UHGV virus genome: UHGV-0148165
DNA: 64,000 bases
Direction: 5' to 3' (one strand)
Source of the DNA: a virus
The notes under the pieces are model-generated. The model had not been told where the DNA came from. It saw only the letters and a list, made by a program, of their open reading frames with translations, and searched no databases. Made by a program: the position numbers and the translations under genes. This document shows positions 39,860 through 62,309 of the stretch, piece by piece (position 1 is the stretch's first letter; every line of letters begins with the position of its first letter).

Positions 39860-40768
39860 ATGTTTAAACGTAAATCTACTGCTGAACTCGCTGCGCAAAT
39901 GGCTAAACTGGCTGGAAATAAAGGTGGTTTTTCTTCTGAAGATAAAGGCGAGTGGAAACTGAAACTCGATAATGCGGGTAACGGTCAAGCAGTAATTCGT
40001 TTTCTTCCGTCTAAAAATGATGAACAAGCACCATTCGCAATTCTTGTAAATCACGGTTTCAAGAAAAATGGTAAATGGTATATTGAAACATGTTCATCTA
40101 CTCACGGTGATTACGATTCTTGCCCAGTATGTCAATACATCAGTAAAAATGATCTGTACAACACTGACAATAAAGAGTACAGTCTTGTTAAACGTAAAAC
40201 TTCTTACTGGGCTAACATTCTTGTTGTAAAAGACCCAGCTGCTCCAGAAAACGAAGGTAAAGTATTTAAATACCGTTTCGGTAAGAAAATCTGGGATAAA
40301 ATCAATGCAATGATTGCGGTTGATGTCGAAATGGGTGAAACTCCGGTTGATGTAACTTGTCCGTGGGAAGGTGCTAACTTTGTACTGAAAGTTAAACAAG
40401 TTTCTGGATTTAGTAACTACGATGAATCTAAATTCCTGAATCAATCTGCGATTCCAAACATTGACGATGAATCTTTCCAGAAAGAACTGTTCGAACAAAT
40501 GGTTGACCTTTCTGAAATGACTTCTAAAGATAAATTCAAATCGTTTGAAGAACTGAGCACTAAGTTCAGTCAAGTTATGGGAACTGCTGCTATGGGTGGT
40601 GCCGCTGCAACTGCTGCTAAGAAAGCTGATAAAGTTGCTGATGATTTGGATGCATTCAATGTTGATGACTTCAATACAAAAACTGAAGATGATTTTATGA
40701 GCTCAAGCTCTGGCAGTTCATCTAGTGCTGATGACACGGATCTGGATGACCTTTTAAATGACCTTTAA
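39860..40768 (+). CDS. 32: single-stranded DNA-binding protein gp32, 302 aa
   Basis: [50 protein letters not shown]... and acidic C-terminus match T4 gp32 as recalled. Confidence 0.9.
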
Positions 40769-40790
40769 TAAATTATATTACTAATTAATT

Positions 40791-40815
40791 GGGGACCCTA
40801 GAGGTCCCCTTTTTT
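40791..40815 (+). terminator. intrinsic terminator after gene 32
   Basis: GGGGACC-CTAGA-GGTCCCC followed by TTTTTT. Confidence 0.75.
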
Positions 40816-40840
40816 ATTTCAAAAATTTTTTCACAAAACG

Positions 40841-40870
40841 GTTTACATCCTTGTCCTTCCATGGTACTAT
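40841..40870 (+). promoter_or_regulatory. strong T4 early promoter with UP element
   Basis: AAAAATTTTTTCACAAAACG then GTTTAC 40841-40846, 18-nt spacer, TGG-TACTAT 40865-40870. Confidence 0.6.
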
Positions 40871-40913
40871 ACAACTATCAGCAATACTGCTAATAATTGA
40901 AGAGGAAAATAAT

Positions 40914-41141
40914 ATGGCTAAAGTTGATATTGACATCGTTGATTTTGAATATATTGAAGAAATTATTCGTAATCGTTATCCTGAACTTAGTATCACAAGT
41001 GTACAAGATTCTAAGTTTTGGAGTATTCAAATCGTTATTGAAGGTCCTCTTGAAGACCTCACCCGCTTTATGGCTAATGAATATTGTGATGGCATGGATT
41101 CTGAAGACGCAGAATTTTACATGGGACTGATTGAACAATAA
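40914..41141 (+). CDS. hypothetical acidic protein, 75 aa
   Basis: ATG 40914 after GAGGAAAATAAT; track ORF 40851 starts inside the promoter. Confidence 0.45.
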
Positions 41142-41186
41142 TTATCAAGGGGCTATTAAGCCCCTATTAAAATGAGGAAAATCAAA

Positions 41187-41573
41187 ATGGAAATCGGCAA
41201 AAAATACGAGTTAAATCCACATCGTATTAAATCTTTCATTGATATTAGTTCATCAAATGCTAATATGGTCGGCATCATTCAAGAAAATGGTGGTTGGTTT
41301 GAAGTTAAATCAATATCAAGTTTAGATGGCTTTGATTATGTAACCGAAATCATTTGTGCTAATGGTGAAATCTATAATGATGATGGTATGGGTGATGATT
41401 ATTTTGAACTTAGTGAAGAAGAGTTTTATTGTTTCCGCGAATATAAAGAACCGACTTCTGAAGAAGATGAAGTCAAAGACAAGGTTTATGGCGTAACAAA
41501 AATTCACTGCATTGTAGACGAAAACAATGTAGATGAAATCATTGAACTTTTGCGAAAAACTTTCAAAAAGTAG
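41187..41573 (+). CDS. hypothetical protein, 128 aa
   Basis: ATG 41187 after GAGGAAAATCAAA. Confidence 0.45.
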   Translation: MEIGKKYELNPHRIKSFIDISSSNANMVGIIQENGGWFEVKSISSLDGFDYVTEIICANGEIYNDDGMGDDYFELSEEEFYCFREYKEPTSEEDEVKDKVYGVTKIHCIVDENNVDEIIELLRKTFKK

Positions 41574-41602
41574 TTTACAACAGGGTAGTAGTGTGATACT
41601 AT
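41573..41602 (+). promoter_or_regulatory. T4 early-type promoter
   Basis: GTTTAC 41573-41578, 18-nt spacer, TACTAT 41597-41602. Confidence 0.5.
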
Positions 41603-41712
41603 TACCCTATCAAAATTAATGGAGAAAAGAAAATGTTCGCACCTTATATTATGGCAGCAGTTATGTTGGTCTGTTTATACCTTTTGATTAAAGCTTGCTA
41701 AGGAGAATAAAA

Positions 41713-41955
41713 ATGAGATTACAACGTCAGAGCATCAAAGATTCAGAAGTTAGAGGTAAATGGTATTTTAATATCATCGGTAAAGATTCTGAGCTTGTTG
41801 AAAAAGCTGAACACCTTTTACGTGATATGGGGTGGGAAGATGAATGTGATGGATGTCCTCTTTATGAAGACGGAGAAAGCGCAGGATTCTGGATTTACCA
41901 TTCTGACGTCGAGCAGTTTAAAGCTGATTGGAAAATTGTGAAAAAGTCTGTTTAA
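41713..41955 (+). CDS. hypothetical protein, 80 aa
   Basis: ATG 41713 after AAGGAGAATAAAA. Confidence 0.45.
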   Translation: MRLQRQSIKDSEVRGKWYFNIIGKDSELVEKAEHLLRDMGWEDECDGCPLYEDGESAGFWIYHSDVEQFKADWKIVKKSV

Positions 41956-41965
41956 GGAAAATAAT

Positions 41966-42994
<1,029 letters not shown>

Positions 42995-42995
<1 letters not shown>

Positions 42996-43543
42996 TGAAA
43001 CAATACCAATTTTTAATTAAAGATATCCTGGAAAATGGCTACGAAACCGATGACCGAACAGGCACAGGAACAATTGCTTTGTTCGGTACTAAATTACGCT
43101 GGGATTTAACTAAAGGTTTTCCTGCAGTAACAACTAAGAAGCTCGCCTGGAAAGCTTGCATTGCTGAGCTAATATGGTTTTTATCGGGAAGCACAAATGT
43201 CAATGATTTACGATTAATTCAGCATGATTCGTTAATCCAAGGCAAAACAGTCTGGGATGAAAATTACGAAAATCAAGCAAAAGATTTAGGATACCATAGC
43301 GGTGAACTTGGTCCAATTTATGGAAAACAATGGCGCGATTTTGGCGGTGTAGACCAAATTATAGAAGTTGTTGATCGTATTAAAAAATTGCCAAATGATA
43401 GGCGTCAAATTGTTTCAGCATGGAATCCAGCTGAACTCAAGCAGATGGCATTACCGCCTTGTCATATGTTCTATCAGTTTAATGTGCGTAATGGCTATTT
43501 GGATTTGCAGTGGTATCAACGATCAGTAGATGTTTTCTTGGGT
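42995..43543 (+). CDS. td: thymidylate synthase, exon 1 (183 codons)
   Basis: MKQYQFLIKDILENGYETDDRTGTGT...; reading frame hits TAA at the first intron codon. Confidence 0.9.
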
Positions 43544-44559
43544 TAATTGAGGCCTGAGTATAAGGTGACTTATACTTGTAATCTATCTAAACGGGGAACC
43601 TCTCTAGTAGACAATCCCGTGCTAAATTGTAGGACTGCCCTTTAATAAATACTTCTATATTTAAAGAGGTATTTATGAAAAGCGGAATTTATCAGATTAA
43701 AAATACTTTAAACAATAAAGTATATGTAGGAAGTGCTAAAGATTTTGAAAAGAGATGGAAGAGGCATTTTAAAGATTTAGAAAAAGGATGCCATTCTTCT
43801 ATAAAGCTTCAGAGGTCTTTTAACAAACATGGTAATGTGTTTGAATGTTCTATTTTGGAAGAAATTCCATATGAGAAAGATTTGATTATTGAACGAGAAA
43901 ATTTTTGGATTAAAGAGCTTAATTCTAAAATTAATGGATACAATATTGCTGATGCAACGTTTGGTGATACATGTTCTACGCATCCATTAAAAGAAGAAAT
44001 TATTAAGAAACGTTCTGAAACTGTTAAAGCTAAGATGCTTAAACTTGGACCTGATGGTCGGAAAGCTCTTTACAGTAAACCCGGAAGTAAAAACGGGCGT
44101 TGGAATCCAGAAACCCATAAGTTTTGTAAGTGCGGTGTTCGCATACAAACTTCTGCTTATACTTGTAGTAAATGCAGAAATCGTTCAGGTGAAAATAATT
44201 CATTCTTTAATCATAAGCATTCAGACATAACTAAATCTAAAATATCAGAAAAGATGAAAGGTAAAAAGCCTAGTAATATTAAAAAGATTTCATGTGATGG
44301 GGTTATTTTTGATTGTGCAGCAGATGCAGCTAGACATTTTAAAATTTCGTCTGGATTAGTTACTTATCGTGTAAAATCTGATAAATGGAATTGGTTCTAC
44401 ATAAATGCCTAACGACTATCCCTTTGGGGAGTAGGGTCAAGTGACTCGAAACGATAGACAACTTGCTTTAACAAGTTGGAGATATAGTCTGATCTGCATG
44501 GTGACATGCAGCTGGATATAATTCCGGGGTAAGATTAACGACCTTATCTGAACATAATG
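43544..44559 (+). mobile_element. group I self-splicing intron in td, 1016 nt, carrying I-TevI
   Basis: exon 1 ends GGT, intron starts TAATTGAGGCCTGAGTATAAGGTG, conserved core GTAGGGTCAAGTGACTCGAAA, intron ends ...AACATAATG; exons rejoin in frame. Confidence 0.9.
43675..44412 (+). CDS. GIY-YIG homing endonuclease I-TevI, 245 aa
   Basis: GIY-YIG motif IYQIKNTLNNKVYVGSAKDFEKR; C-terminal zinc finger and DNA-binding region; inside td intron. Confidence 0.9.
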   Translation: MKSGIYQIKNTLNNKVYVGSAKDFEKRWKRHFKDLEKGCHSSIKLQRSFNKHGNVFECSILEEIPYEKDLIIERENFWIKELNSKINGYNIADATFGDTCSTHPLKEEIIKKRSETVKAKMLKLGPDGRKALYSKPGSKNGRWNPETHKFCKCGVRIQTSAYTCSKCRNRSGENNSFFNHKHSDITKSKISEKMKGKKPSNIKKISCDGVIFDCAADAARHFKISSGLVTYRVKSDKWNWFYINA

Positions 44560-44871
44560 CTACCATTTAATATTGCATCATATGCTACGTTAGTTCATAT
44601 TGTAGCTAAGATGTGTAATCTTATTCCGGGAGATTTGATATTTTCCGGTGGTAATACTCATATCTATATGAATCACGTAGAACAATGTAAAGAAATTTTA
44701 CGTCGTGAACCTAAAGAGCTTTGTGAACTGGTAATAGGCGGATTGCCTTATAAATTCCGCTATCTTTCTACTAAAGAACAATTGGAATACATTCTTAAAC
44801 TCAGGCCTAAAGATTTCGTTCTCAAAGATTATCAGTCCCACGGCGTCTTGAAAGGAAAAATGGCGGTGTAA
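44560..44871 (+). CDS. td: thymidylate synthase, exon 2 (103 codons)
   Basis: LPFNIASYATLVHIVAKMCNLIPGD... continues the TS fold. Confidence 0.9.
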   Translation, partial: LPFNIASYATLVHIVAKMCNLIPGDLIFSGGNTHIYMNHVEQCKEILRREPKELCELVIGGLPYKFRYLSTKEQLEYILKLRPKDFVLKDYQSHGVLKGKMAV

Positions 44872-44882
44872 TTTCAATTTAA

Positions 44883-45158
44883 TTGCGAGGATATATGATT
44901 TTACGATTTAAAGATACTTCTGGTGTAGTTCTTTTTACACTTCCTAACCCAAGCGAGTTAGAAGTTCCAGGACCAAATCAGCCTATTATCATTTATGGCA
45001 AAAAATATTATACTCATAAAATGACTCGTGAGTATTTTGATAATAAAATTTCTACAGTTAAAACTTCTTCTGATTGTTACTATGATATTACTGTTTTGAC
45101 GGAAAAACAATATGTTGAATTATCACCGCGCGGGCCGTCTATGCCGGGTAGTGAATAA
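44883..45158 (+). CDS. hypothetical protein, 91 aa
   Basis: complete ORF between td and nrdA; true start uncertain. Confidence 0.4.
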
Positions 45159-45438
45159 ATATAAATCCGACTTTGATGTTAATATTCACCGTGGTACATT
45201 TTGGGGAAATTACGTCGGTAAAGATGCTGGCAGCCGGGAGGCTGCCATTGAATTATTCAAAAAAGATTTTATACGTCGAATTAAATCCGGAGAAATAACT
45301 AAAGCACATTTAGAGCCTTTACGTGGAATGAGGCTAGGATGCACATGTAAACCAAAGCCGTGTCATGGTGATATAATAGCTCATATAGTTAACCGACTGT
45401 TTAAAGACGATTTTCAAGTTGAGGACTTATGCAATTAA
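45112..45438 (+). CDS. hypothetical protein, 108 aa, Cys/His cluster
   Basis: [12 protein letters not shown] motif; overlaps neighbours, true start uncertain. Confidence 0.4.
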
Positions 45439-47693
45439 TTAATGTTATCAAAAGTAGTGGTGTTTCTCAGAGCTTTGACCCGCAAAAAATTATTAAAGTT
45501 TTATCTTGGGCAGCTGAAGGAACATCAGTAGATCCTTATGAATTATATGAAAATATTAAATCTTATCTCCGTGATGGAATGACAACTGATGATATTCAGA
45601 CTATTGTCATTAAGGCCGCTGCGAATTCTATTTCGGTTGAAGAGCCTGATTATCAATATGTAGCTGCACGCTGTTTAATGTTCGCTCTTCGTAAGCATGT
45701 TTATGGGCAGTATGAACCACGTTCATTTATTGACCATATTTCTTACTGTGTAAATGAAGGTAAATATGACCCTGAATTGTTGTCAAAATATTCAGCAGAA
45801 GAAATTACATTTTTAGAATCAAAAATTAAGCACGAGCGGGATATGGAATTTACTTATTCCGGAGCGATGCAATTAAAAGAAAAATATCTAGTCAAAGATA
45901 AAACCACCGGTCAAATTTATGAAACTCCGCAGTTTGCATTTATGACTATTGGAATGGCATTGCATCAAGATGAACCTGTTGATAGACTAAAACACGTTAT
46001 CCGTTTTTATGAAGCAGTATCTACTCGACAGATTTCATTGCCAACTCCTATTATGGCTGGTTGCCGTACTCCGACTCGACAGTTTAGTTCATGTGTTGTT
46101 ATTGAGGCAGGAGATTCATTGAAGTCTATCAATAAGGCTTCCGCTTCAATTGTTGAATATATCTCTAAACGCGCTGGAATTGGTATTAACGTTGGTATGA
46201 TTCGTGCCGAAGGTTCTAAGATTGGCATGGGTGAAGTACGCCATACTGGTGTTATTCCTTTTTGGAAACATTTTCAGACTGCAGTTAAATCATGTTCACA
46301 GGGTGGAATTCGTGGCGGCGCTGCTACTGCTTATTATCCTATTTGGCATTTGGAAGTTGAAAATCTTCTCGTTTTGAAAAATAACAAAGGCGTAGAAGAA
46401 AACCGCATTCGTCATATGGATTATGGTGTTCAACTGAATGATTTGATGATGGAACGTTTTGGAAAGAACGATTACATTACTTTGTTCAGTCCCCATGAAA
46501 TGGGTGGAGAGCTTTATTATTCTTATTTTAAAGACCAAGACCGTTTCCGTGAATTATACGAAGCAGCAGAAAAAGACCCTAATATTCGTAAAAAGCGTAT
46601 TAAAGCCCGTGAACTATTTGAATTGCTCATGACTGAACGTTCAGGAACAGCAAGGATTTATGTACAGTTCATTGATAATACGAATAACTATACTCCGTTT
46701 ATTCGTGAAAAGGCACCTATTCGTCAGAGTAACTTGTGCTGTGAAATTGCTATTCCAACAAATGATGTGAATAGTCCTGATGCTGAAATTGGATTGTGTA
46801 CTCTCTCTGCATTCGTACTAGATAATTTTGACTGGCAAGACCAAGATAAAATTAATGAATTGGCAGAAGTTCAAGTTCGTGCTCTTGATAATCTTTTGGA
46901 TTACCAAGGATATCCAGTTCCTGAAGCAGAAAAAGCTAAAAAGCGTCGTAACCTTGGCGTAGGTGTTACCAACTATGCAGCTTGGCTGGCAAGTAACTTT
47001 GCTTCTTATGAAGATGCTAACGATTTAACACATGAACTATTTGAGAGATTACAGTATGGACTCATTAAAGCATCCATTAAGCTCGCCAAAGAAAAAGGAC
47101 CTTGCGAATATTATTCAGACACTCGTTGGTCTCGAGGCGAATTACCTATCGACTGGTACAATAAAAAGATTGACCAAATCGCAGCTCCAAAATACGTTTG
47201 TGACTGGTCGTCGCTGCGGGAAGACCTCAAGCTCTTTGGCATCCGTAATAGCACATTATCAGCACTTATGCCATGTGAGTCATCTTCCCAAGTTTCTAAC
47301 AGTACAAACGGTATCGAGCCTCCACGTGGACCGGTAAGTGTTAAAGAATCAAAAGAGGGTTCCTTTAATCAAGTCGTGCCCAATATTGAGCATAACATAG
47401 ACCTCTATGATTATACGTGGAAATTAGCTAAGAAAGGTAATAAACCTTATCTTACACAGGTAGCTATTATGCTGAAATGGGTATGTCAATCAGCTTCAGC
47501 GAATACATACTATGACCCGCAAATTTTTCCAAAAGGAAAGGTTCCAATGTCAATAATGATTGATGACATGCTATATGGATGGTATTATGGCATTAAAAAT
47601 TTCTATTATCATAATACCCGTGATGGTTCTGGTACTGATGATTATGAAATAGAAACTCCAAAAGCTGAAGATTGTTCATCCTGTAAATTATGA
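45429..47693 (+). CDS. nrdA: ribonucleotide reductase large subunit NrdA, 754 aa
   Basis: N-terminal ATP-cone, class I RNR catalytic core; length matches T4 NrdA. Confidence 0.9.
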   Translation: MQLINVIKSSGVSQSFDPQKIIKVLSWAAEGTSVDPYELYENIKSYLRDGMTTDDIQTIVIKAAANSISVEEPDYQYVAARCLMFALRKHVYGQYEPRSFIDHISYCVNEGKYDPELLSKYSAEEITFLESKIKHERDMEFTYSGAMQLKEKYLVKDKTTGQIYETPQFAFMTIGMALHQDEPVDRLKHVIRFYEAVSTRQISLPTPIMAGCRTPTRQFSSCVVIEAGDSLKSINKASASIVEYISKRAGIGINVGMIRAEGSKIGMGEVRHTGVIPFWKHFQTAVKSCSQGGIRGGAATAYYPIWHLEVENLLVLKNNKGVEENRIRHMDYGVQLNDLMMERFGKNDYITLFSPHEMGGELYYSYFKDQDRFRELYEAAEKDPNIRKKRIKARELFELLMTERSGTARIYVQFIDNTNNYTPFIREKAPIRQSNLCCEIAIPTNDVNSPDAEIGLCTLSAFVLDNFDWQDQDKINELAEVQVRALDNLLDYQGYPVPEAEKAKKRRNLGVGVTNYAAWLASNFASYEDANDLTHELFERLQYGLIKASIKLAKEKGPCEYYSDTRWSRGELPIDWYNKKIDQIAAPKYVCDWSSLREDLKLFGIRNSTLSALMPCESSSQVSNSTNGIEPPRGPVSVKESKEGSFNQVVPNIEHNIDLYDYTWKLAKKGNKPYLTQVAIMLKWVCQSASANTYYDPQIFPKGKVPMSIMIDDMLYGWYYGIKNFYYHNTRDGSGTDDYEIETPKAEDCSSCKL

Positions 47694-47744
47694 TATAATT
47701 TGACTCATGGACGAGTCACTATCTATTAACTAAGTGGAAAATTT

Positions 47745-48420
47745 ATGAGCACAGTTTTTAATACAAACCCAGTTGATGTTTTAAAAGAACCTATGTTTTT
47801 TGGTTCAGGTCTTGGTATTGCGCGTTATGATATTCAACGCCATAAAGTTTTTGAAGATTTGACCGAAAAGCAATTGTCATTTTTCTGGCGTCCTGAAGAA
47901 GTAAACTTAATGATGGATGCTGCACAGTTTAATAAGCTTCCTCAGTATCAGCAAAATATTTTTACTAATAACCTGAAGTATCAATCACTTTTGGATAGCA
48001 TTCAGGGTCGTGCGCCATCTGCTGTACTTATGTCATTAATTTCAGACCCGAGTCTTGATACATGGGTTGCTACATGGACTTTTAGTGAAACTATTCACAG
48101 CCGTTCATATACACATATCATGCGAAATCTTTATACTGATCCATCGAAGGTATTTGATGAGATTGTATTAGATGAAGCTATTATGAAACGTGCTGAATCC
48201 ATTGGACGCTATTATGATGACGTTCTGATTAAAACCCGTGAATGGGAAAATGCTAAAGAATTTGTAGAACTAGCTAAAGAATCTCCTGATGCTGTCTTTC
48301 GTTTAAACCGAGCTATTAAACAAGAAGCCGAAGCTAAACGTGCTTTAATGAAATCTCTTTACCTCTGTTTGCACGTTATTAATGCCTTAGAAGCAATTCG
48401 TTTTTATGTATCTTTTGCGT
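47745..48420 (+). CDS. nrdB: ribonucleotide reductase small subunit NrdB, exon 1
   Basis: ends ...LEAIRFYVSFA + first base of Cys codon; frame then hits TAA in the intron. Confidence 0.85.
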
Positions 48421-49510
48421 AAAATGCGCCTTTAAACGGTAACGTTTATCGAAAACTCCTTTAATTGCTGGAAAGTCCTTTATAGGAAAACTAGCAGCCA
48501 AGGTTTTGCTTGCACCTTTAATTAGTATAATATAAATATGATTATACTTTTAAGAGGATGCACAATTGAACTATAGAAAAATTTGGATAGATGCTAACGG
48601 ACCTATACCTAAAGATTCTGATGGAAGAACATACGAAATCCATCATAAAGACGGTAACCGTGAAAATAATGATTTAGATAATTTGATGTGCCTTTCTATA
48701 CAGGAACATTATGATATACATTTAGCTCAAAAAGATTACCAGGCTTGTCATGCTATAAAGCTTAGAATGAAATATTCTCCTGAAGAAATTTCTGAATTAG
48801 CTTCTAAAGCCGCAAAATCTAGAGAAATCCAGATTTTTAATATCCCTGAAGTACGAGCTAAAAATATTGCCTCTATTAAATCTAAGATAGAAAATGGTAC
48901 ATTTCATCTTTTAGATGGTGAAATACAGCGTAAATCTAATTTAAATAGAGCTGCATTAGGTATACATAATTTTCAACAAGCTGAGCATATTGCAAAAGTT
49001 AAAGAACGCAATATTGCAGCTATAAAAGAAGGTACTCATGTATTTTGCGGTGGTAAAATGCAGTCAGAAACTCAATCAAAACGGGTAAATGACGGTTCAC
49101 ATCATTTCTTATCAGAAGACCATAAGAAAAGAACATCAGCAAAAACATTAGAAATGGTTAAGAACGGGACCCATCCTGCACAAAAAGAAATCACATGTGA
49201 TTTCTGTGGTCACATTGGTAAAAGTCCTGGATTTTATCTAAAACATAATGACAGATGTAAATTAAATCCAAATAGAATTCAATTGAATTGTCCATATTGT
49301 GATAAGAAAGATTTATCACCATCAACATATAAACGATGGCACGGCGACAATTGCAAAACAAGGTTCAACGACTAGTCTTCGGACGTAGGGTCAAGCGACT
49401 CGAAATGGGGAGAATCCCTCCGGGATTGTGATATAGTCTGGACTGCATGGTAACATGCAGCAGTTCATAAGAGAACGGGTTGAGAATTAGCGAGCTCAAT
49501 CGAACATACG
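48421..49510 (+). mobile_element. group I self-splicing intron in nrdB, 1090 nt, carrying a full-length HNH endonuclease gene
   Basis: exon 1 ends with U, intron ends with G 49510; shares core GTAGGGTCAAGCGACTCGAAA and 3' CTGCATGGTAACATGCAG with the td intron; exons rejoin to ...SFACTFNFHKNMEIMEGNAK. Confidence 0.8.
48566..49375 (+). CDS. HNH homing endonuclease (I-TevIII-like), 269 aa, TTG start
   Basis: HNH motif EIHHKDGNRENNDLDNLMCLSIQEH; C-terminal Cys-rich zinc-finger-like region; inside nrdB intron; AAGAGG 8 nt upstream of TTG. Confidence 0.8.
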   Translation: MNYRKIWIDANGPIPKDSDGRTYEIHHKDGNRENNDLDNLMCLSIQEHYDIHLAQKDYQACHAIKLRMKYSPEEISELASKAAKSREIQIFNIPEVRAKNIASIKSKIENGTFHLLDGEIQRKSNLNRAALGIHNFQQAEHIAKVKERNIAAIKEGTHVFCGGKMQSETQSKRVNDGSHHFLSEDHKKRTSAKTLEMVKNGTHPAQKEITCDFCGHIGKSPGFYLKHNDRCKLNPNRIQLNCPYCDKKDLSPSTYKRWHGDNCKTRFND

Positions 49511-50013
49511 GTACCTTTAACTTCCATAAAAACATGGAAATCATGGAAGGTAATGCCAAGATTATGAAGTTCATTGCACGCGATGAACAGCTTCACCTTA
49601 AAGGCACCCAATATATTATTCGTCAACTTCAATCTGGTACTGATGGCGATGAATGGGTTAAAATTGCTCAAGAGTGTGAACAAGAAGCAGTTGATATTTT
49701 CATGGAAGTTAACCGCCAAGAAAAAGATTGGGCAGTTCATTTATTTAAAGATGGCGATGTTCCTGGATTAAATACAAATAGCATGTGGAGCTTTATTGAT
49801 TACTTAACTGTATCTCGTATGAAACAGTGCGGTCTTCCATGCCCAATTACCGATGCTCCGGTTAAACATCCATATCCTTGGATTCGTGAATATCTTAATT
49901 CTGATAATGTTCAATCCGCGCCACAAGAAGTAGAACTGTCATCTTATCTTGTTGCACAGATTGATAATGATGTTGATGATAAAGTTATGATGAGTTTTAA
50001 AAAATACTTTTAA
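49511..50013 (+). CDS. nrdB: ribonucleotide reductase small subunit NrdB, exon 2
   Basis: MEGNAKIMKFIARDEQLHLKGTQ... conserved RNR R2 region. Confidence 0.85.
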
Positions 50014-50017
50014 GGAG

Positions 50018-50040
50018 TGGGCCGCAAGGCCCATTTTATT
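50018..50040 (+). terminator. GNRA-loop hairpin plus T-run after nrdB, lying between the AAGGAG and the denA ATG
   Basis: TGGGCC-GCAA-GGCCCA followed by TTTTATT. Confidence 0.5.
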
Positions 50041-51628
<1,588 letters not shown>

Positions 51629-51631
51629 GCT

Positions 51632-51661
51632 GTTTACAAGTCCCTCATGTTGTGTTATAGT
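51632..51661 (+). promoter_or_regulatory. T4 early-type promoter upstream of alc, with flanking imperfect inverted repeat that includes the SD
   Basis: GTTTAC 51632-51637, TATAGT 51656-51661; AGTCCCTCATGTT 51639-51651 pairs with AACATGAGGACT 51676-51687. Confidence 0.45.
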
Positions 51662-51692
51662 AGTCTTACTGACATAACATGAGGACTTTATG

Positions 51693-52196
51693 ATGGATTT
51701 GCAGCTTATTACTACTGAAATGGTCGTTGAAGCATACGGTGATACTACAGATGGGATTTCTGTATTCAAAGGAAATCGTCGAGTTGGATATATCACCGAT
51801 CTTAAGAAAGATTTAGCTAAGCAAGTCAAGCGGAAAACGACCATTAAAGAATATCGAAATCGTCGTCTTGAGCAAGCCCGTGATATGCTTCCTGATGCGG
51901 TTGAAGAGATGAAAGTCTTTTTAGAAAATCAACTCGCTAAGTATGATTGTGAAGTGTTCATTAATCAGACTCAACCTAATGTTCATATCAATAGCTGTAA
52001 ATGCTATATCATCGTTAATCCTTTAACGGGAAAACATCGTCTTGGAATTAGTAATCCAAATCGTAGCGCATCGGATATGGCAGAAGATGTTGAGGCATGC
52101 TTTAAAATTTCTAAATCTCCAGCTGAACATCATATTTTAATTAACGGTCTTTCTCAAGACGATATTATAGAGGTTATTAAAACTTTATGCATGTAA
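51693..52196 (+). CDS. alc: Alc-like protein (inhibitor of host transcription), 167 aa
   Basis: 167 aa, position between rnlA and pseT as in T4; assignment from size and synteny. Confidence 0.6.
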   Translation: MDLQLITTEMVVEAYGDTTDGISVFKGNRRVGYITDLKKDLAKQVKRKTTIKEYRNRRLEQARDMLPDAVEEMKVFLENQLAKYDCEVFINQTQPNVHINSCKCYIIVNPLTGKHRLGISNPNRSASDMAEDVEACFKISKSPAEHHILINGLSQDDIIEVIKTLCM

Positions 52197-52540
52197 GTAA
52201 TTTTACAGCTGGATTGCTATTACTTGTAATAGCATTTGGCGGAACATCTATTATTTTAAAAAATAAGGTAGAAAGATTAGAAACATCAGTTACTGAAATT
52301 ACAAAAACAGCCAATGAAAACGCTTTAGCATTAAATAATTTGCGAATTCAGTATAATTATATTGATGCGATGAATAATAAAAATCGTGAGGCAATTGCTG
52401 CTATTGAGCGTGAAAATGAAAAACTGCGCAAAGATGCAAAGAAGGCGGATGTGGTGGCTCATAAGCCAGGATTGGTTGAAAAACAAATCAACAACTCCTT
52501 CAACAAGTTCGCAGAAGACATCCAGGACCTTTCTAAATGA
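52187..52540 (+). CDS. hypothetical protein with N-terminal TM segment, 117 aa
   Basis: N-terminus MHVSNFTAGLLLLVIAFGGTSIIL; coiled-coil-like remainder. Confidence 0.45.
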   Translation: MHVSNFTAGLLLLVIAFGGTSIILKNKVERLETSVTEITKTANENALALNNLRIQYNYIDAMNNKNREAIAAIERENEKLRKDAKKADVVAHKPGLVEKQINNSFNKFAEDIQDLSK

Positions 52541-52836
52541 TTAAACTATCAGCAGTAATATTATCTATTGGTCTTCTAGTTGGTTGTTCTACAAAGCCTC
52601 TAGAAGTAAAGAAAGAAACAGTTCATCCTAATTGGCCTGTACAAATAAAGTCATATGATGAAGCTAAACTATCTTGGCAAGTTAAAGTTATCGATGGTAA
52701 AGCTTGGGTCGGTATGCCATTTGAAGATTCTCAGGAATTTCGTATTTGGCTTAATGATGTAAAACGATATGTACATGACCAGAAAACTATGATATGTTAT
52801 TATCGTCAAGAGTTAAAAGAGGATAAATGTAAATGA
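52537..52836 (+). CDS. putative lipoprotein, 99 aa
   Basis: signal peptide with lipobox LVGC (MIKLSAVILSIGLLVGCSTKP). Confidence 0.5.
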   Translation: MIKLSAVILSIGLLVGCSTKPLEVKKETVHPNWPVQIKSYDEAKLSWQVKVIDGKAWVGMPFEDSQEFRIWLNDVKRYVHDQKTMICYYRQELKEDKCK

Positions 52837-53059
52837 TTTCATGGCATCAATTTGAACATCTCAAAGGATTGATTTATGAATCCGAGATGGCAGCAATGAT
52901 TTATGGACGTCAGATTCAACGATTAGAATCTTTACCTCCAACTAATGATGTTTTATTAGCTCAATCACGTGCTAATCTTAAAAATGAATACCAAAATAAG
53001 TGGGGTAAAGCATCTAAAGACCTGCATGATTATATTCAATCATTGGTTGAGAAAAATAA

Positions 53060-53063
<4 letters not shown>
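52833..53063 (+). CDS. hypothetical protein, 76 aa
   Basis: start overlaps upstream stop. Confidence 0.45.
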
Positions 53064-54264
<1,201 letters not shown>

Positions 54265-54328
54265 TGGCTTGGCACCATGAAACTTGGGATATTATTAATT
54301 GGCTTGAAGAAAATTATGTGAGGTAAAT

Positions 54329-54604
54329 ATGTTTCCGACTTATTCTAAAATCGTAGAAGTAGTGTTTAGCCAAATTATTGCTAATAATATGTTTGAAAAA
54401 CTTGATAATGCAGCTGAGCTTCGAATCCATGCTCAAGTGACTCATGTATTGAACACTTTGCTTCCAGACCAGGTGGATTCTGTTGCCATCACGTTGTATC
54501 CAGGTTCCGCGCATATCATTGTCGTATTTGGTCTTGATGCTGAGCTAGTTATCAAAGGCGATATTCGTTTTGAATCGCAGACAGCAGAATTCAAAGCAAT
54601 TTAA
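54329..54604 (+). CDS. hypothetical protein, 91 aa
   Basis: complete ORF after pseT. Confidence 0.45.
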   Translation: MFPTYSKIVEVVFSQIIANNMFEKLDNAAELRIHAQVTHVLNTLLPDQVDSVAITLYPGSAHIIVVFGLDAELVIKGDIRFESQTAEFKAI

Positions 54605-54606
54605 TA

Positions 54607-54645
54607 GTTTACTTTACGGTAGAGTTGTGATATTATAGCTCTACC
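54607..54645 (+). promoter_or_regulatory. T4 early-type promoter with -10 embedded in a 7-bp inverted repeat
   Basis: GTTTAC 54607-54612, TATTAT 54631-54636, flanked by GGTAGAG 54618-54624 and CTCTACC 54639-54645. Confidence 0.55.
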
Positions 54646-54665
54646 AAACAAATGAGGAAAACAAA

Positions 54666-54905
54666 ATGCTGCTAAGTGAAAAACCGATTACTGTTAAAGA
54701 ATTCCAAGAAAAAGTTAAGCTATTTGCGCAGGAATTGGTAAATAAGGTTTCTGAACGATTTCCTGAAACATCGGTTCGTGTTATTACCGAAACTCCTCGT
54801 TCAGTATTAGTAATTGTGAATCCAGGTGATGGCGATCAAATATCGCATCTTAAATTAGATTTTGATGGATTAGTTGAAGCACAAAGGGTGTATGGCGTAC
54901 TATGA
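54666..54905 (+). CDS. hypothetical protein, 79 aa
   Basis: ATG after GAGGAAAACAAA. Confidence 0.45.
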   Translation: MLLSEKPITVKEFQEKVKLFAQELVNKVSERFPETSVRVITETPRSVLVIVNPGDGDQISHLKLDFDGLVEAQRVYGVL

Positions 54906-55240
54906 TGAATTTAACTGATATAATTGATAATTGTCTTGAAAATGATACTGGCGATCATAGAGCGCTTGATTCTGAAACAGCACAGTTCATTAGAATAACT
55001 TTAATGAATGATACTCTAGTGAATAGTATTCATCCTTCTGTGTATGATGCTATTATTGTGACGAAGTATCCAGTTGAGCTTCACAAAAAGATGACTGGCG
55101 CAGTTTTTATTGATAAGAAAAACCGCTTTAAAGATGGGCTGAATATAATTACTTCTGTTGTTAAAAGTATAACTAAACTTCGTCACGAAATTTATCGCGT
55201 TGAAACTGCTAAATCTGCTTATCTGGTGATTATGAAATGA
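54902..55240 (+). CDS. hypothetical protein, 112 aa
   Basis: start overlaps upstream stop; stop overlaps cd start. Confidence 0.45.
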   Translation: MMNLTDIIDNCLENDTGDHRALDSETAQFIRITLMNDTLVNSIHPSVYDAIIVTKYPVELHKKMTGAVFIDKKNRFKDGLNIITSVVKSITKLRHEIYRVETAKSAYLVIMK

Positions 55241-55818
55241 AAGCGAGTACAGTACTTCAAATTGCATATTTAGTATCACAGGAATCAAAATGTTGCTCCT
55301 GGAAGGTAGGAGCAGTAATTGAAAAGAATGGACGTATTATTTCTACCGGATATAATGGTTCACCCGCAGGGGGTGTGAACTGTTGTGATTATGCTGCTGA
55401 GCAAGGTTGGTTGTTGAATAAGCCTAAACATACTATCATTCAAGGTCATAAGCCTGAATGCGTATCATTTGGTTCAACTGATCGTTTTGTTTTGGCGAAA
55501 GAACATCGTAGCGCTCACTCTGAATGGTCGTCTAAAAATGAAATTCATGCTGAACTAAATGCAATTTTGTTTGCTGCACGAAATGGTTCTTCTATTGAAG
55601 GTGCTACTATGTATGTAACACTTTCTCCTTGCCCAGATTGTGCAAAAGCGATAGCTCAATCTGGCATTAAAAAGCTGGTTTATTGCGAAACATACGATAA
55701 AAATAAACCTGGCTGGGATGATATTCTGCGAAATGCAGGTATTGAAGTGTTTAATGTTCCTAAGAAAAACTTGAATAAGTTAAACTGGGAAAATATCAAC
55801 GAATTCTGTGGTGAATAA
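55237..55818 (+). CDS. cd: dCMP deaminase, 193 aa
   Basis: zinc-binding deaminase motifs HAELNA and SPCPDCAKAI; length matches T4 Cd. Confidence 0.85.
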   Translation: MKASTVLQIAYLVSQESKCCSWKVGAVIEKNGRIISTGYNGSPAGGVNCCDYAAEQGWLLNKPKHTIIQGHKPECVSFGSTDRFVLAKEHRSAHSEWSSKNEIHAELNAILFAARNGSSIEGATMYVTLSPCPDCAKAIAQSGIKKLVYCETYDKNKPGWDDILRNAGIEVFNVPKKNLNKLNWENINEFCGE

Positions 55819-56054
55819 TGAAATTTCGTTTGGTAAAGCTCACAGCAATTAGTTCTTATTCTAACGAGAACATCTCATTTGCTGTAGAGTTTAAGAAATA
55901 TTTTTTCTCTAAATGGAAACAGTATTATAAAACTGATTGGACTAGTATTGATAGACCATATAGTTGGAAATCTGATTTAGAAAAATGCCAAAAATTACTT
56001 TCCACCCTTAAAGAACGTGGAACAACTCATATTAAAACTGTGATAGGTAAATAA
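55818..56054 (+). CDS. hypothetical protein, 78 aa
   Basis: start overlaps cd stop. Confidence 0.45.
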   Translation: MKFRLVKLTAISSYSNENISFAVEFKKYFFSKWKQYYKTDWTSIDRPYSWKSDLEKCQKLLSTLKERGTTHIKTVIGK

Positions 56055-56363
56055 ATGAAACTGACAACTGAGCAGAAAGTAGCAATTCGTGAAATTTTGA
56101 AAACTAAATTGTCTATGGGTGTTTCAAACGTAGTTTTTGAAAAGTCTGATGGTACTATTCGTACTATGAAAGGTACTCGTGATGCAGACTTTATGCCAAC
56201 CATGCAAACTGGCAAATTGACTGAATCTACTCGGAAAGAATCTACTGACATGATTCCAGTATTTGATGTTGAACTTGGTGCATGGCGAGGTTTTTCTATT
56301 GACAAATTGATTTCTGTTAATGGTATGAAAGTTGAGCATTTGCTCCAATTTATTGGTAAATAA
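56055..56363 (+). CDS. hypothetical protein, 102 aa
   Basis: start adjacent to upstream stop. Confidence 0.45.
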   Translation: MKLTTEQKVAIREILKTKLSMGVSNVVFEKSDGTIRTMKGTRDADFMPTMQTGKLTESTRKESTDMIPVFDVELGAWRGFSIDKLISVNGMKVEHLLQFIGK

Positions 56364-56419
56364 ATGCTTTAAGAATTATTTGTTATTATTAATTCATCTG
56401 TTAACAAAAAGGAAAAACG

Positions 56420-56755
56420 ATGTCTGAAGTACAACAGCTACCAATTCGTGCTGTCGGTGAATATGTTATTTTAGTTTCTGAACCTGCACAAGCCGGTGAT
56501 GAAGAAGTTACAGAATCAGGACTTATTATCGGTAAACGTGTTCAAGGTGAAGTTCCTGAACTGTGTGTAGTTCACTCTGTCGGTCCTGATGTTCCTGAAG
56601 GTTTCTGCGAAGTTGGTGATTTGACTTCTCTTCCAGTTGGTCAAATTCGAAATGTTCCGCATCCTTTTGTAGCTCTGGGTCTTAAGCAGCCAAAAGAAAT
56701 TAAACAAAAATTCGTTACTTGTCACTATAAAGCTATTCCATGTCTTTATAAGTGA
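56420..56755 (+). CDS. 31: co-chaperonin gp31 (GroES-like), 111 aa
   Basis: [40 protein letters not shown]... matches T4 gp31 as recalled. Confidence 0.85.
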
Positions 56756-56763
56756 TATAAATA
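56756..56763 (+). promoter_or_regulatory. late promoter TATAAATA upstream of rIII
   Basis: exact TATAAATA directly after gene 31 stop. Confidence 0.4.
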
Positions 56764-56902
56764 ATAATATGAATTGGGTGTCGGAATAATAAGTTAACCG
56801 AACAATTCTATGTGGTAGTCTACAACTGAGAGATCTGTCGAAAGAAGATGAAATTCAGAAGAACGTGACTACCGAGTTTTAATCTCTAACGAGAATTTTT
56901 AA

Positions 56903-57151
56903 ATGATTAAACAATTACAACACGCTCTTGAACTGCAACGAAACGCATGGAATAATGGTCACGAAAACTATGGCGCATCTATTGATGTTGAAGCCGAAGC
57001 TCTTGAAATCCTGCGTTATTTCAAACATCTGAATCCTGCTCAAACTGCATTAGCTGCTGAGCTTCAGGAAAAAGATGAACTTAAATATGCTAAGCCTTTG
57101 GCTTCTGCTGCACGAAAAGCAGTTCGTCACTTTGTGGTAACACTGAAGTAA
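56903..57151 (+). CDS. rIII: rIII lysis-inhibition accessory protein, 82 aa
   Basis: 82 aa, position between 31 and 30 block as in T4. Confidence 0.65.
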   Translation: MIKQLQHALELQRNAWNNGHENYGASIDVEAEALEILRYFKHLNPAQTALAAELQEKDELKYAKPLASAARKAVRHFVVTLK

Positions 57152-57270
57152 TTATGATGACGGGTTTATGGTTATCCTGGTCGTTAAATATCCAAAACCT
57201 ATGTTCCCCTTGAGGGCTTGCGCAGGCAATGCCAATAAGTCCTGCATTTTCATTTAAAAGAGAATTTATA

Positions 57271-57447
57271 ATGGCAAAACAAGCTAAAGCAAAGAAAGCA
57301 GTTGAAAAGAAAGTTGGTGATTCTAAACGCGCTGGCTACAAGCGTGGGTCGAACTCTCGTATCAATCAAACTGTTGAGAAGATCATGCGCCGAGCACGTG
57401 CGGTTCTTCGAGATGATGCTTCTCGTTTTGGTAAGCAGAAAGCATAA
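57271..57447 (+). CDS. small basic hypothetical protein, 58 aa
   Basis: ATG 57271 (track ORF 57229 starts upstream); Lys/Arg-rich MAKQAKAKKAVEKKVGDSKRAGYKRG. Confidence 0.4.
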   Translation: MAKQAKAKKAVEKKVGDSKRAGYKRGSNSRINQTVEKIMRRARAVLRDDASRFGKQKA

Positions 57448-57450
57448 GTT

Positions 57451-57476
57451 GAGGACTCCTTCGGGAGTCCTTTTTT
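57451..57476 (+). terminator. intrinsic terminator, identical copy of the hairpin after soc
   Basis: AGGACTCC-TTCG-GGAGTCCT followed by TTTTTT; same 25-mer as 4178-4202. Confidence 0.65.
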
Positions 57477-57500
57477 ATTTTCCAAAGATTGCACAAAGTT

Positions 57501-57530
57501 GTTTACAGTACGGTTCCTTTGTGATAGTAT
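57501..57530 (+). promoter_or_regulatory. T4 early-type promoter
   Basis: GTTTAC 57501-57506, 18-nt spacer, TAGTAT 57525-57530. Confidence 0.5.
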
Positions 57531-57557
57531 TATCTTACACAAACAAAGGAGAATAAA

Positions 57558-57890
57558 ATGAAAACTATTAATCTGAACGCTACAGTTAAAACTAAATGTT
57601 TCAATGGTAAATATAATGAAACTATGTGGTTCTTAATGGCAGTTGAAGGTGATATTATTGAAGTAGAAACAACAGAAGGTATGGGAACAGATTTCACCTT
57701 TACAATTCAAGTTCATAATTTCTTTACTGGTTGGATTTATGAATTGAATACAGTAATCGTTGGAAAAATTGAACAAAATGAATTAGGTGAATGGTATTAT
57801 GTTACAGCTCGCCAACGTGCTGAACGCTTAATTGAGAAAATGAAAAAAGTTGGTAAACTTGACATGCAGCATTGGAAAGTAGTAAAATAA
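57558..57890 (+). CDS. hypothetical protein, 110 aa
   Basis: ATG after AAGGAGAATAAA. Confidence 0.5.
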   Translation: MKTINLNATVKTKCFNGKYNETMWFLMAVEGDIIEVETTEGMGTDFTFTIQVHNFFTGWIYELNTVIVGKIEQNELGEWYYVTARQRAERLIEKMKKVGKLDMQHWKVVK

Positions 57891-57892
57891 TT

Positions 57893-57932
57893 GTTTACTT
57901 TGGTACAGGACATGATATTATATACCTGTACC
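57893..57932 (+). promoter_or_regulatory. T4 early-type promoter with -10 embedded in an 8-bp inverted repeat
   Basis: GTTTAC 57893-57898, TATTAT 57916-57921, flanked by GGTACAGG 57902-57909 and CCTGTACC 57925-57932. Confidence 0.55.
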
Positions 57933-57957
57933 GCAATTAAACATCTTGGAGAATAAA

Positions 57958-58323
57958 ATGAACTACATTAACTTTGAACGTAAATATGTTTCTAATGGTA
58001 TTGCAGGTTCTATTGATACCATCTGCCTTTGGAAACATCAAAACGGATCAGTATGCGAAATCGATCAGTATATGACTCCTAACTACGTTTATATGCGATT
58101 TGAAAACGGTATCACGGTTTCAATCACAATGGAAGGTTCCAACTTTAAAATCGCTCTGGATGATGATTTCCGTCAACGCGATTTAGGGACTCATCCTTGC
58201 TGGAATGGTGCTAATCGTAAACTCTTAGTTAAAACTTGGATTCGTCATATTCTGAGTAACAGAGCTAAACCTGAGCATCTTGAAGCAATCTTTGATGTAG
58301 TTCTTAACGAATTTGATATTTAA
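57958..58323 (+). CDS. hypothetical protein, 121 aa
   Basis: ATG 57958 after GGAGAATAAA (track starts at TTG 57946). Confidence 0.5.
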   Translation: MNYINFERKYVSNGIAGSIDTICLWKHQNGSVCEIDQYMTPNYVYMRFENGITVSITMEGSNFKIALDDDFRQRDLGTHPCWNGANRKLLVKTWIRHILSNRAKPEHLEAIFDVVLNEFDI

Positions 58324-58333
58324 AATAAAATGA

Positions 58334-58347
58334 GGGGCTTCGGGCCC
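58334..58347 (+). other. UUCG-tetraloop RNA hairpin in 5' leader (no T-run)
   Basis: GGGGC-TTCG-GGCCCC-like stem-loop between two ORFs. Confidence 0.45.
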
Positions 58348-58365
58348 CTTACTGAGGAAAATATT

Positions 58366-58653
58366 ATGTTTATGACTACTTATTTTGATACTCGCAAAAA
58401 TTTCTGTGAAGTGGTTTTCTCAAAGGCACCTAAAGACCTTCCTGCACATTTGCAACCTACTAGCGAATCGATTAAAAACTACGTTGATGCGGTTTGTCCT
58501 TTAGAGTTTCGTACTGTAAATGGGCACGATACTTTAGCTATCACTAAACTCAATCGTGAAATTGACATTGACCCTTCAATTGCGCGCGAAATTAATATTT
58601 CTGATATTGGTGGCGGTAATGTTAAATCGCATGGTTTTCAGATGAGGTTCTAA
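58366..58653 (+). CDS. hypothetical protein, 95 aa
   Basis: ATG 58366 after GAGGAAAATATT; upstream in-frame ATG 58330 runs through the hairpin and lacks SD. Confidence 0.45.
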   Translation: MFMTTYFDTRKNFCEVVFSKAPKDLPAHLQPTSESIKNYVDAVCPLEFRTVNGHDTLAITKLNREIDIDPSIAREINISDIGGGNVKSHGFQMRF

Positions 58654-58850
58654 TGAAATTCTTTTTAGGTCAAACTGTTGAATTAAAGGGAGTTGGTATA
58701 CCTGGATTAATTTCTAAGGTTTTACCTCCATTTAAATGGAGTGGTATTCAAATAAAAGAGGCTTATATTGTTTCCTGGGTAGATGGAAATGAAGACCTTC
58801 GTATGGGTGATGAATTATCTCCTATCTACGGATTAAAGGAATTAGTATGA
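58653..58850 (+). CDS. hypothetical protein, 65 aa
   Basis: start overlaps upstream stop. Confidence 0.45.
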   Translation: MKFFLGQTVELKGVGIPGLISKVLPPFKWSGIQIKEAYIVSWVDGNEDLRMGDELSPIYGLKELV

Positions 58851-59053
58851 ATATAATTAATAAGATTTTTGGAATTCAGTACATTAAGGTCACATATAAA
58901 GTAACAGATAAAAATCCATATACCGATGAACATGAAGAACCACAAATTGAGTCTATTATATTAGAAAAAGGCAGTGACTGGCCAGTTGAATTTCGTCTTC
59001 CTTGCTATGGTCATTGGGCTGATGTTGAAATTATAAGCATTGAAAATGTCTGA
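58847..59053 (+). CDS. hypothetical protein, 68 aa
   Basis: start overlaps upstream stop. Confidence 0.45.
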   Translation: MNIINKIFGIQYIKVTYKVTDKNPYTDEHEEPQIESIILEKGSDWPVEFRLPCYGHWADVEIISIENV

Positions 59054-59504
59054 GTTAGAGATTAGAAGCAATTTTAAGTGGCCATCATGTGCATTAAGTA
59101 ATTTCGCTCAATGGCCTTTCGTTATGGATGGTATTCAATTTGGAGGTCTAGAAGGATTCCTTCAAGGGTGCAAGGTGAAAAATGTTGAACAACAACGTCG
59201 TATATTTGGGTTATCAGGGCTTGCCGCTCAACAAGCTGGAAGGTCTTATGCTAGAGCTCAGGACCGTGGGACCCTCTTCTGGCTTGGAGTTCCGTTTTCA
59301 AGATACTCCCCGGCGTGGAAAGAATTATACACAAATGCATATTTTGAAGCAGCGATCCAAAACAAGGGCTTTCGTGATGCATTACAAGCCTCGAAAGGAA
59401 AAGTTTTGAAGCACAGCATGGCTAGTGGTCTAACAAAAGATGATACAATACTAACCGAAGCTGAATTTATTGATGTGTTAAACCTATTAAGAGACTCTCT
59501 ATGA
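59046..59504 (+). CDS. hypothetical protein, 152 aa; possible NADAR/YbiA-like (DUF1768) fold
   Basis: ATG 59046 (track starts at TTG 59040); motif pattern NFKWPSCALSNFAQWPF...GLEGFLQGCK; assignment tentative. Confidence 0.4.
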   Translation: MSELEIRSNFKWPSCALSNFAQWPFVMDGIQFGGLEGFLQGCKVKNVEQQRRIFGLSGLAAQQAGRSYARAQDRGTLFWLGVPFSRYSPAWKELYTNAYFEAAIQNKGFRDALQASKGKVLKHSMASGLTKDDTILTEAEFIDVLNLLRDSL

Positions 59505-60346: not shown

Positions 60347-60615
60347 TGTTTGTTGTTCACACTATTTATGAAAATGAAGGTAATACTACACGTGATTACG
60401 GTCACGTAAATCAATTTTTTAGATGCAATCCAGAATTCCGAGCTCAAAAAGACGAACGAATTTTTAAAAAATGTGTAGAGCAAGGTTTCATTTACGTCAA
60501 GCATTGGATGCAAGGAAATAAAGTTAGAACCACGTACCACAGGTCTTTGCCTGAGCTTAATGATGAATTGATTTATAATAGAGCTGTAAACCAAACCTTG
60601 AAGGATGAGCAATGA
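60346..60615 (+). CDS. hypothetical protein, 89 aa
   Basis: start overlaps upstream stop; stop overlaps ligase start. Confidence 0.45.
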   Translation: MFVVHTIYENEGNTTRDYGHVNQFFRCNPEFRAQKDERIFKKCVEQGFIYVKHWMQGNKVRTTYHRSLPELNDELIYNRAVNQTLKDEQ

Positions 60616-62075: not shown

Positions 62076-62260
62076 AAGCTTACTTAGAAACAATTGTCAT
62101 TGCTCAAAAAGAAGGTGGAGATGTTTCTACTTCTGTATCACAAGTCATTCTCGAATTTGTAGATGCATACGCTTATAATAAATTCACAGAAACATTTGAT
62201 GCCTATGAAAAAGGTCCAAAGTTTGAAATATACCGTACTCTCTTACCACTAGATTATTAA
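62072..62260 (+). CDS. hypothetical protein, 62 aa
   Basis: ATGA overlap with ligase stop; followed by hairpin and late promoter. Confidence 0.4.
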   Translation: MKAYLETIVIAQKEGGDVSTSVSQVILEFVDAYAYNKFTETFDAYEKGPKFEIYRTLLPLDY

Positions 62261-62276
62261 AGGCCTTCGGGCCTTT
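62259..62276 (+). terminator. UUCG-tetraloop hairpin after the ligase operon (weak T-run)
   Basis: AAAGGCC-TTCG-GGCCTTT; the AGGCC-TTCG-GGCCTTT core also occurs at 14581-14596. Confidence 0.45.
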
Positions 62277-62281
62277 AATTT

Positions 62282-62289: not shown

Positions 62290-62309
62290 GAATAAACACT
62301 AGAGAGGCT

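Follow-up and report, generated by a model that had tools for sequence, protein, structure and literature searches.

The nrdB gene of the DNA analysed here, a stretch of 64,000 nucleotides of the virus genome UHGV-0148165 that is referred to below as the window, is interrupted by 1090 nt of additional sequence, which raises the question of whether this insertion is a group I intron that both splices and moves, one that splices but has lost its mobility, or a lesion that has cost the phage an intact gene. The systems against which the question can be examined are well established. The nrdB intron and its endonuclease, I-TevIII, are already known, having been characterised in 2007 and annotated in dozens of genomes, and the RB3-type intron itself has been known since the work of Eddy & Gold in 1991, as cited in PMC2988022. 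The nrdB intron of T4 is described as self-splicing (PMC2790892); it cannot home unaided (PMC1865063, PMC2790892), and its endonuclease gene being defective, homing is driven in trans by MobE (PMC2790892). RB3 I-TevIII, on the other hand, is an active, dimeric homing endonuclease that cuts both DNA strands (Robbins 2007, PMC1865063). The observations described below favour, with a probability of roughly 0.93, the reading of the window insertion as the T-even nrdB group I intron in its undeleted, RB3-type form, both self-splicing and mobile. Its anatomy, its reading frames, its conserved residues, its base-pairing and its near-identity to alleles that have been tested are all read directly from the DNA.

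The segment that carries the insertion is of T4 type (Tequatrovirus), positions 40000..64000 being 96-98% identical to the phages vB_ECOLIGBLB0003 (GBLB0003), RB3, SHFML-11 and SHFML-26. A megablast search with positions 48300..49650 recovered 683 phage records, 85 of which span the whole query; the segment that is absent from T4 is found in 85 phage records. The best matches, at 99.0-99.5% and with few point differences, are Shigella phages SHFML-26 and SHFML-11, phage G10400, and Escherichia phages vB_Eco_BCPEco_001 (BCPEco_001) and GBLB0003, followed by RB3 and RB5-RB10 at 98.6%.

The interruption of nrdB can be followed base by base. The upstream ORF (47745..48422) supplies the first 225 residues of NrdB and ends with ...FYVSFA, immediately followed by an in-frame TAA. 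In-silico removal of the 1090 nt generates an uninterrupted NrdB of 392 residues that reads ...FYVSFA-C-TFNFHKNMEIMEGNAK... and, across the exon junction, ...FYVSFACTFNFHKNMEIMEGNAK..., with a predicted spliced mRNA in which ...UUUGCGU is directly followed by GUACCUUU... The joined product yields one continuous match to the Pfam family Ribonuc_red_sm (profile positions 9-271 of 281, 128 bits), while the product of exon 1 alone reaches 72 bits. The initial annotation had proposed that the frame breaks after FYVSFA and resumes 1090 nt downstream, that joining U48420 to G49511 restores the protein, and that the 5' exon ends in U and the intron in G; the ORF list, the in-silico join and the bases themselves (T at 48420, G at 49510) agree with it on each of these points. 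The appropriate annotation of the locus is thus a single nrdB coding sequence that joins 47745..48420 and 49511..50013.

It can also be observed that exon 1 is mosaic with respect to T4: some 40 residues (162-200, encoded by 48228..48345) form a strongly diverged patch that is four residues longer, and from residue 201 through the end of exon 2 the protein is identical to that of T4. This mosaicism is consistent with recombination, or with co-conversion tracts around the intron. The features of the locus are collected in Table 1.

Table 1. Features of the nrdB locus; positions are those of the window, and a prime denotes the 3' strand of a helix.
Feature	Position	Strand	Description	Basis
nrdB exon 1	47745..48420	+	codons 1-225 and first base of codon 226	ORF list, splice join, Pfam Ribonuc_red_sm
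Group I intron	48421..49510	+	1090 nt, terminal G49510	excision restores NrdB; T4/RB3 comparison; RF00028
5' ribozyme part	48417..48509	+	every cell pairs in 5 introns; compensatory changes in P2 and P5	helix map
P1	48417-21/48425-29	+		helix map
P2	48434-38/48443-47	+		helix map
P3, 5' strand	48456-61	+		helix map
P4	48466-71/48491-96	+		helix map
P5	48476-79/48484-87	+		helix map
P6 and P6a, 5' strands	48497-99; 48503-09	+		helix map
Putative I-TevIII operator	48503..48529	+	21/27 identical to the intron-less homing site (TTTTGCGT joined to GTACCTTTAACTTCCATAA)	
RNA hairpin	48511..48562	+	Shine-Dalgarno AGAGG (48553-57) paired with CCUUU (48515-19)	
T4 late-promoter consensus	48531..48538	+	TATAAATA; apical loop of the hairpin	exact motif search
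I-TevIII ORF	48566..49375	+	269 aa; TTG start 8 nt past the Shine-Dalgarno	ORF list, Pfam, RB3 alignment
Segment deleted in T4	48630..49120	+	491 nt; holds the HNH motif	alignment to T4 intron
3' ribozyme core	49353..49510	+	100% identical to T4	RF00028 alignment, helix map
P6a' and P6'	49353-59; 49362-64	+		helix map
P7	49370-74/49434-38	+		helix map, RF00028
P7.1 and P7.2	49375-84; 49388-401	+		helix map
P3' and P8	49407-12; 49413-27	+		helix map, RF00028
P9	49443-60	+	GUAA loop	helix map, RF00028
P9.1 and P9.2; terminal G	49463-76; 49478-501; 49510	+		helix map
nrdB exon 2	49511..50013	+	remainder of codon 226 to stop codon	ORF list, splice join, Pfam

The secondary structure of the intron was modelled on an ORF-deleted mini-intron (48411-48509, a GAAA linker and 49353-49520), the sequence of which is the same in SHFML-26. 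Helices P1 to P9.2 were assigned by inspection, starting from the window sequence itself and with the RF00028 alignment as a guide, and were then examined in an alignment of the introns of the window, RB3, T4, S16 (whose ORF segment is 87% identical) and HY03. The resulting 73-pair model has standard pairs in each of its 364 cells, so that pairing is 100% in five of five introns; control structures slid by one to three columns pair at 33-42%, with no compensatory change. Four pairs are compensatory (two in P2, one in P5 and one in P9) and three more are altered on one side only, to G-U; most helices are invariant across the five introns, and the covariation support thus consists of these four pairs. 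The model contains a predicted conserved core of P3-P4-P6 and P7-P3'-P8 with a P3/P7 pseudoknot. Two further hallmarks are present in the sequence: a U48420-G48426 wobble inside P1, invariant in the five introns, and an omega-G at the end of the intron, the excision of which restores the reading frame. Helix P5 comprises 4 bp in the window, RB3 and S16 (UCCU/AGGA) and in HY03 (UCCA/UGGA); T4 and GBLB0003 are one A short at 48484, which shortens it.

The covariance model RF00028 agrees with the helix model on the bases that form P7, P3', P8 and P9, with a score of 36.6 bits (E=2.2e-7) against a gathering score of 50, the core being split by the ORF. A search of the whole window with Rfam at the gathering threshold returned no match, the td intron being missed as well. 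When the latter was used as a positive control it scored 42.5 bits, also below 50. By E-value both introns score well, and the low score of the nrdB intron is therefore not counted against it: it probably reflects the approximately 850-nt ORF that splits the core, as in ORF-bearing phage introns in general. That score aside, every sequence-level hallmark of a T-even nrdB intron and of I-TevIII that was looked for appears to be present. Guanosine-dependent self-splicing would be expected from the identity of the ribozyme to that of the T4 nrdB intron.

In the helix model the ORF loops out of P6a, and its last ~23 nt (GCAAAACAAGGTTCAACGACTAG) double as the 3' strands of P6a and P6, J6/7 and the 5' strand of P7. 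The residue numbering that results from the TTG at 48566 agrees with that published in PMC1865063, which supports this codon as the start of the published protein; the same TTG is the annotated start in RB3, S16, HY03 and SHFML-26. An ATG at 48558 was considered as an alternative and ruled out, as it is out of frame and followed by a stop after three codons. The product matches Pfam HNH_3 over residues 4-48 (47.3 bits, cutoff 24.8), and can be aligned to RB3 I-TevIII over its full length, collinearly and with no gaps, with 265 of 269 residues identical; the product's 90% cluster also contains UniProt TEV3_BPR03 and the T4 protein listed as 'defective intron-associated endonuclease 3'. The earlier proposal of a 269-residue HNH ORF that starts at TTG within the intron and encodes a full-length, I-TevIII-type endonuclease, neither frameshifted nor truncated, is thus confirmed, and the ORF should be named I-TevIII, a name that automated records often replace by hypothetical protein.

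The residues on which the activity of the RB3 enzyme depends are all retained. Replacement of H26, H27, N39 or H48 by alanine abolishes cleavage by RB3 I-TevIII and leaves DNA binding intact, while its cysteine pairs bind zinc and are required for DNA binding (PMC1865063). The window protein preserves the four HNH residues, counted from the TTG, and all eight zinc ligands (C211, C214, H227, C231, C242, C245, H259 and C263), and both of its C-terminal zinc fingers (C211-C231 and C242-C263) fit the pattern CX2CX12-13HX3C; all eight of the residues mutated in PMC1865063 (H26, H27, N39, H48, C211, C214, C242 and C245) are therefore kept. A weak Pfam match to FlgM (anti-sigma-28) at residues 74-114 (48785..48907; 26.6 bits, cutoff 25), which recurs as 'weak' among precomputed matches, covers a helical linker rich in Lys, Ala and Ser between the HNH and DNA-binding domains; no supporting context accompanies it, and it is probably a chance match of composition. 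Among solved structures, none matched the ORF product significantly (best E=0.47).

The four differences from RB3 I-TevIII (RB3 to window: D23Y, V129A, G220S and A265T) evoke the possibility that the intron splices but that this allele of the enzyme is inactive or weakened, leaving the intron immobile or reliant on general recombination, as that of T4 is. Attention falls on G220S, a change in the loop of the first zinc finger (C211-X2-C214-X12-H227-X3-C231) that is caused by an A at 49223 (codon 220): glycine occupies this position in all 11 other I-TevIII-type proteins aligned, the same holding for T4 and RB3 at 49223, DNA binding requires both zinc fingers, and the purified RB3 enzyme is already weak and labile, with low activity and low affinity (PMC1865063). 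Serine 220 is nevertheless not a metal ligand, and the ORF shows no frameshift, no stop and no loss of a ligand or catalytic residue; the relatives mostly have Y23 and T265 as well, and A129 is shared by the SHFML phages. The exact 269-aa protein, moreover, is found on at least four independent public contigs, which speaks against an error of sequencing or very recent decay of the copy. An inactive or weakened enzyme is, for these reasons, considered unlikely.

Comparison with T4 and RB3, which had been put forward as a means to check the initial annotation, locates the window intron between the two. The T4 intron (NC_000866, T4p231) uses the same splice sites and measures 598 nt versus 1090 nt; the window intron equals it plus 492 nt, consisting of a 491-nt block and the additional A48484, with a substitution at 49223. 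Outside the ORF, A48484, which RB3 also has, is the one difference between the window and T4, and what remains of the ORF in T4 is the same as in the window except at 49223. Each end of the missing 491-nt block is marked by a copy of an imperfect 10-bp direct repeat, GAAGAACATA (48624-33) and GAAGACCATA (49115-24), which suggests that the T4 deletion may have arisen by recombination or slippage between the two. Reading of T4 from the same TTG meets a stop after 22 codons, the HNH motif being gone and the frame shifted, and the remnant of 97 aa is annotated as defective, in line with the statement in the initial annotation that T4 harbours a truncated, inactive version of the ORF. The segment is 100% identical in three of the four phages SHFML-26, SHFML-11, BCPEco_001 and GBLB0003, the two SHFML phages among them.

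RB3 (X59078; KM606994; TEV3_BPR03) shares with the window the host gene, the insertion site, an ORF looped from P6a and a 269-aa protein with an HNH motif and two zinc fingers. Its nrdB region is 98.6% identical in DNA over the 1351 nt compared, with nrdB annotated there as a joined coding sequence alongside I-TevIII, and its intron is 1091 nt long versus 1090 nt in the window. The boundaries of the intron are the same in the window, T4, RB3, S16, HY03, U5 and SHFML-26. These comparisons, with the ORF intact in the window and T4 lacking 491 nt, support the overall reading of an nrdB group I intron with a full-length endonuclease of I-TevIII type. Each nucleotide of the window ribozyme is found in T4 or in RB3; at six positions of the 3' ribozyme (in the P8 loop, J7/9, P9 and the 3' tail), however, RB3 differs and the window agrees with T4, and the window intron is therefore best regarded, on this pattern, as an undeleted intron of T4 type rather than a copy of the RB3 variant. 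A stronger version of this idea, in which the allele would belong, in undeleted form, to the intron lineage of T4 itself, would owe its persistence, in a genome without mobE or hef, wholly to its own I-TevIII and would have had its affinity or target preference altered by G220S, is considered very unlikely.

The neighbourhood of nrdB bears on the question of which enzyme would mobilise the intron. The gene nrdA (45429..47693) lies upstream and nrdB starts at 47745; the 51-nt spacer (47694..47744) holds no free-standing endonuclease gene. This direct junction, identical (100%) to that of BEU50, corresponds to the arrangement in T2, fPS-65 and SHFML-11, whereas mobE lies between the two genes in T4, RB3, HY03, SHFML-26 and GBLB0003, and hef does in U5. 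Among the relatives that were inspected, it is less usual to find a full-length I-TevIII with no mobE beside it. Of the three mildly distinctive traits of the locus, G220S, a T4-type ribozyme together with an intact ORF, and the absence of mobE or hef between nrdA and nrdB, the last two also occur in deposited phages, such as SHFML-11. It could be argued that mobility is provided in trans by a neighbouring free-standing MobE or Hef instead of the intron's own ORF, such trans homing by MobE being documented for T4 (PMC2790892) and mobE or hef being present in most close relatives with a full intron; with neither gene found between nrdA and nrdB in the window and with the intron's own endonuclease ORF intact, this explanation is barely plausible. 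As for the suggestion that the insertion has no function as an intron and that nrdB would be either a pseudogene, disrupted by it, or a gene split so as to give two polypeptides, automated gene calls do divide nrdB into two fragments (nrdB_1, nrdB_2) in many relatives' records and RF00028 remains under its gathering score, but the ribozyme parts match those of the self-splicing T4 nrdB intron (PMC2790892), the in-frame join is continuous over Ribonuc_red_sm, the substitutions among the compared introns keep the helices paired and curated records, including that of RB3, give a joined nrdB coding sequence, and the idea can be dismissed as next to impossible. Most of the annotations of SHFML-26, SHFML-11, BCPEco_001 and GBLB0003 likewise split the gene in two and label the ORF 'homing endonuclease' or 'hypothetical protein'.

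Downstream of nrdB, denA (endonuclease II, with a GIY-YIG domain; 50041..50451) follows directly, and rnlA (RNA ligase 1; 50468/50504..51628) comes after it, in the order found in T4 and RB3. One metagenome scaffold (ENA ERZ28650664 scaffold_2, 215,140 bp) carries the exact I-TevIII protein within the same gene order. T4-type genomes measure about 169 kb; the scaffold exceeds this by ~45 kb, and the excess may stem from terminal redundancy, concatemer assembly or a chimeric scaffold.

The region upstream of the ORF suggests how the endonuclease of this RB3-type allele could be regulated. The fold of 48500..48580 has a predicted energy of -17.9 kcal/mol (z = -3.63), and none of 200 shuffled sequences was as stable. 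It contains the hairpin that sequesters the Shine-Dalgarno sequence, within which lies the late promoter; late transcripts, starting there, would thus be without the 5' arm and leave the ribosome-binding site exposed, and the layout matches that described in PMC2988022. Adjoining the promoter on its upstream side is a stretch that resembles the homing site, with a local alignment score reached by one of 2000 shuffles. An operator for autorepression by I-TevIII has been proposed, not demonstrated, in PMC2988022, and the resemblance of this putative element to the junction sequence fits that proposal.

A model for the intron's life cycle can be assembled in which splicing, expression timing, cleavage and homing are assigned by homology to tested alleles. 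The intron would be transcribed within the nrdB pre-mRNA and its RNA would fold into a group IA-type core, from P1 to P9.2, the ORF looping out at P6a. The first attack, by an external guanosine, would fall after U48420, held in the P1 U-G wobble, and the freed exon 1 would then attack after G49510, ligating the exons into an mRNA for the 392-aa NrdB. On long early and middle transcripts the Shine-Dalgarno sequence of I-TevIII would be buried in the hairpin, while transcripts from the late promoter inside it would free that sequence, so that the enzyme would be made late in infection. I-TevIII, expected to consist of an N-terminal HNH nuclease and a C-terminal domain of two zinc fingers that serves in DNA binding and dimerisation, would cut intron-less nrdB alleles at -14/-16, and recombinational repair would copy the intron, together with flanking exon sequence (co-conversion), into the cut allele. 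For the RB3 enzyme, cleavage at -14/-16 leaves 2-nt 3' extensions, dimerisation occurs via the C-terminal ~75 residues, and homing of the RB3 intron exceeds that of the T4 intron more than 40-fold (PMC1865063).

Beyond correct annotation, the significance of this locus is small. The window holds what appears to be an intact natural copy of an enzyme whose only studied form is that of RB3 and, as it carries I-TevIII without a neighbouring mobE, which RB3 has upstream of nrdB, it could be mildly useful for the comparison of self-driven and trans-driven homing.

The window also offers a second known system for comparison, the group I intron of td (thymidylate synthase), which occupies 43544..44559 (1016 nt), its 5' exon ending in ...GGGU and the intron in ...AAUG. 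Its ORF (~43676..44413) matches a feature that in the closest phage separates the two annotated fragments of thymidylate synthase and is, by position, I-TevI. The two introns had been said to share a core and a 3' element, and they do: GTAGGGTCAAGYGACTCGAAA occurs exactly twice in the 64 kb, at 44431 and 49385, as does CTGCATGGTRACATGCAG, at 44494 and 49443, in each case once in the td intron and once in the nrdB intron, where zero occurrences are expected by chance. Both belong to the same group I subclass, have the P7.2 and P9 blocks in common and carry the ORF in a peripheral loop, and the td intron also employs the layout of a late promoter and a ribosome-binding-site hairpin (PMC2988022). 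The two differ in their host genes and in their enzymes, I-TevI being a monomeric GIY-YIG endonuclease and I-TevIII an HNH dimer (PMC1865063, PMC2988022).
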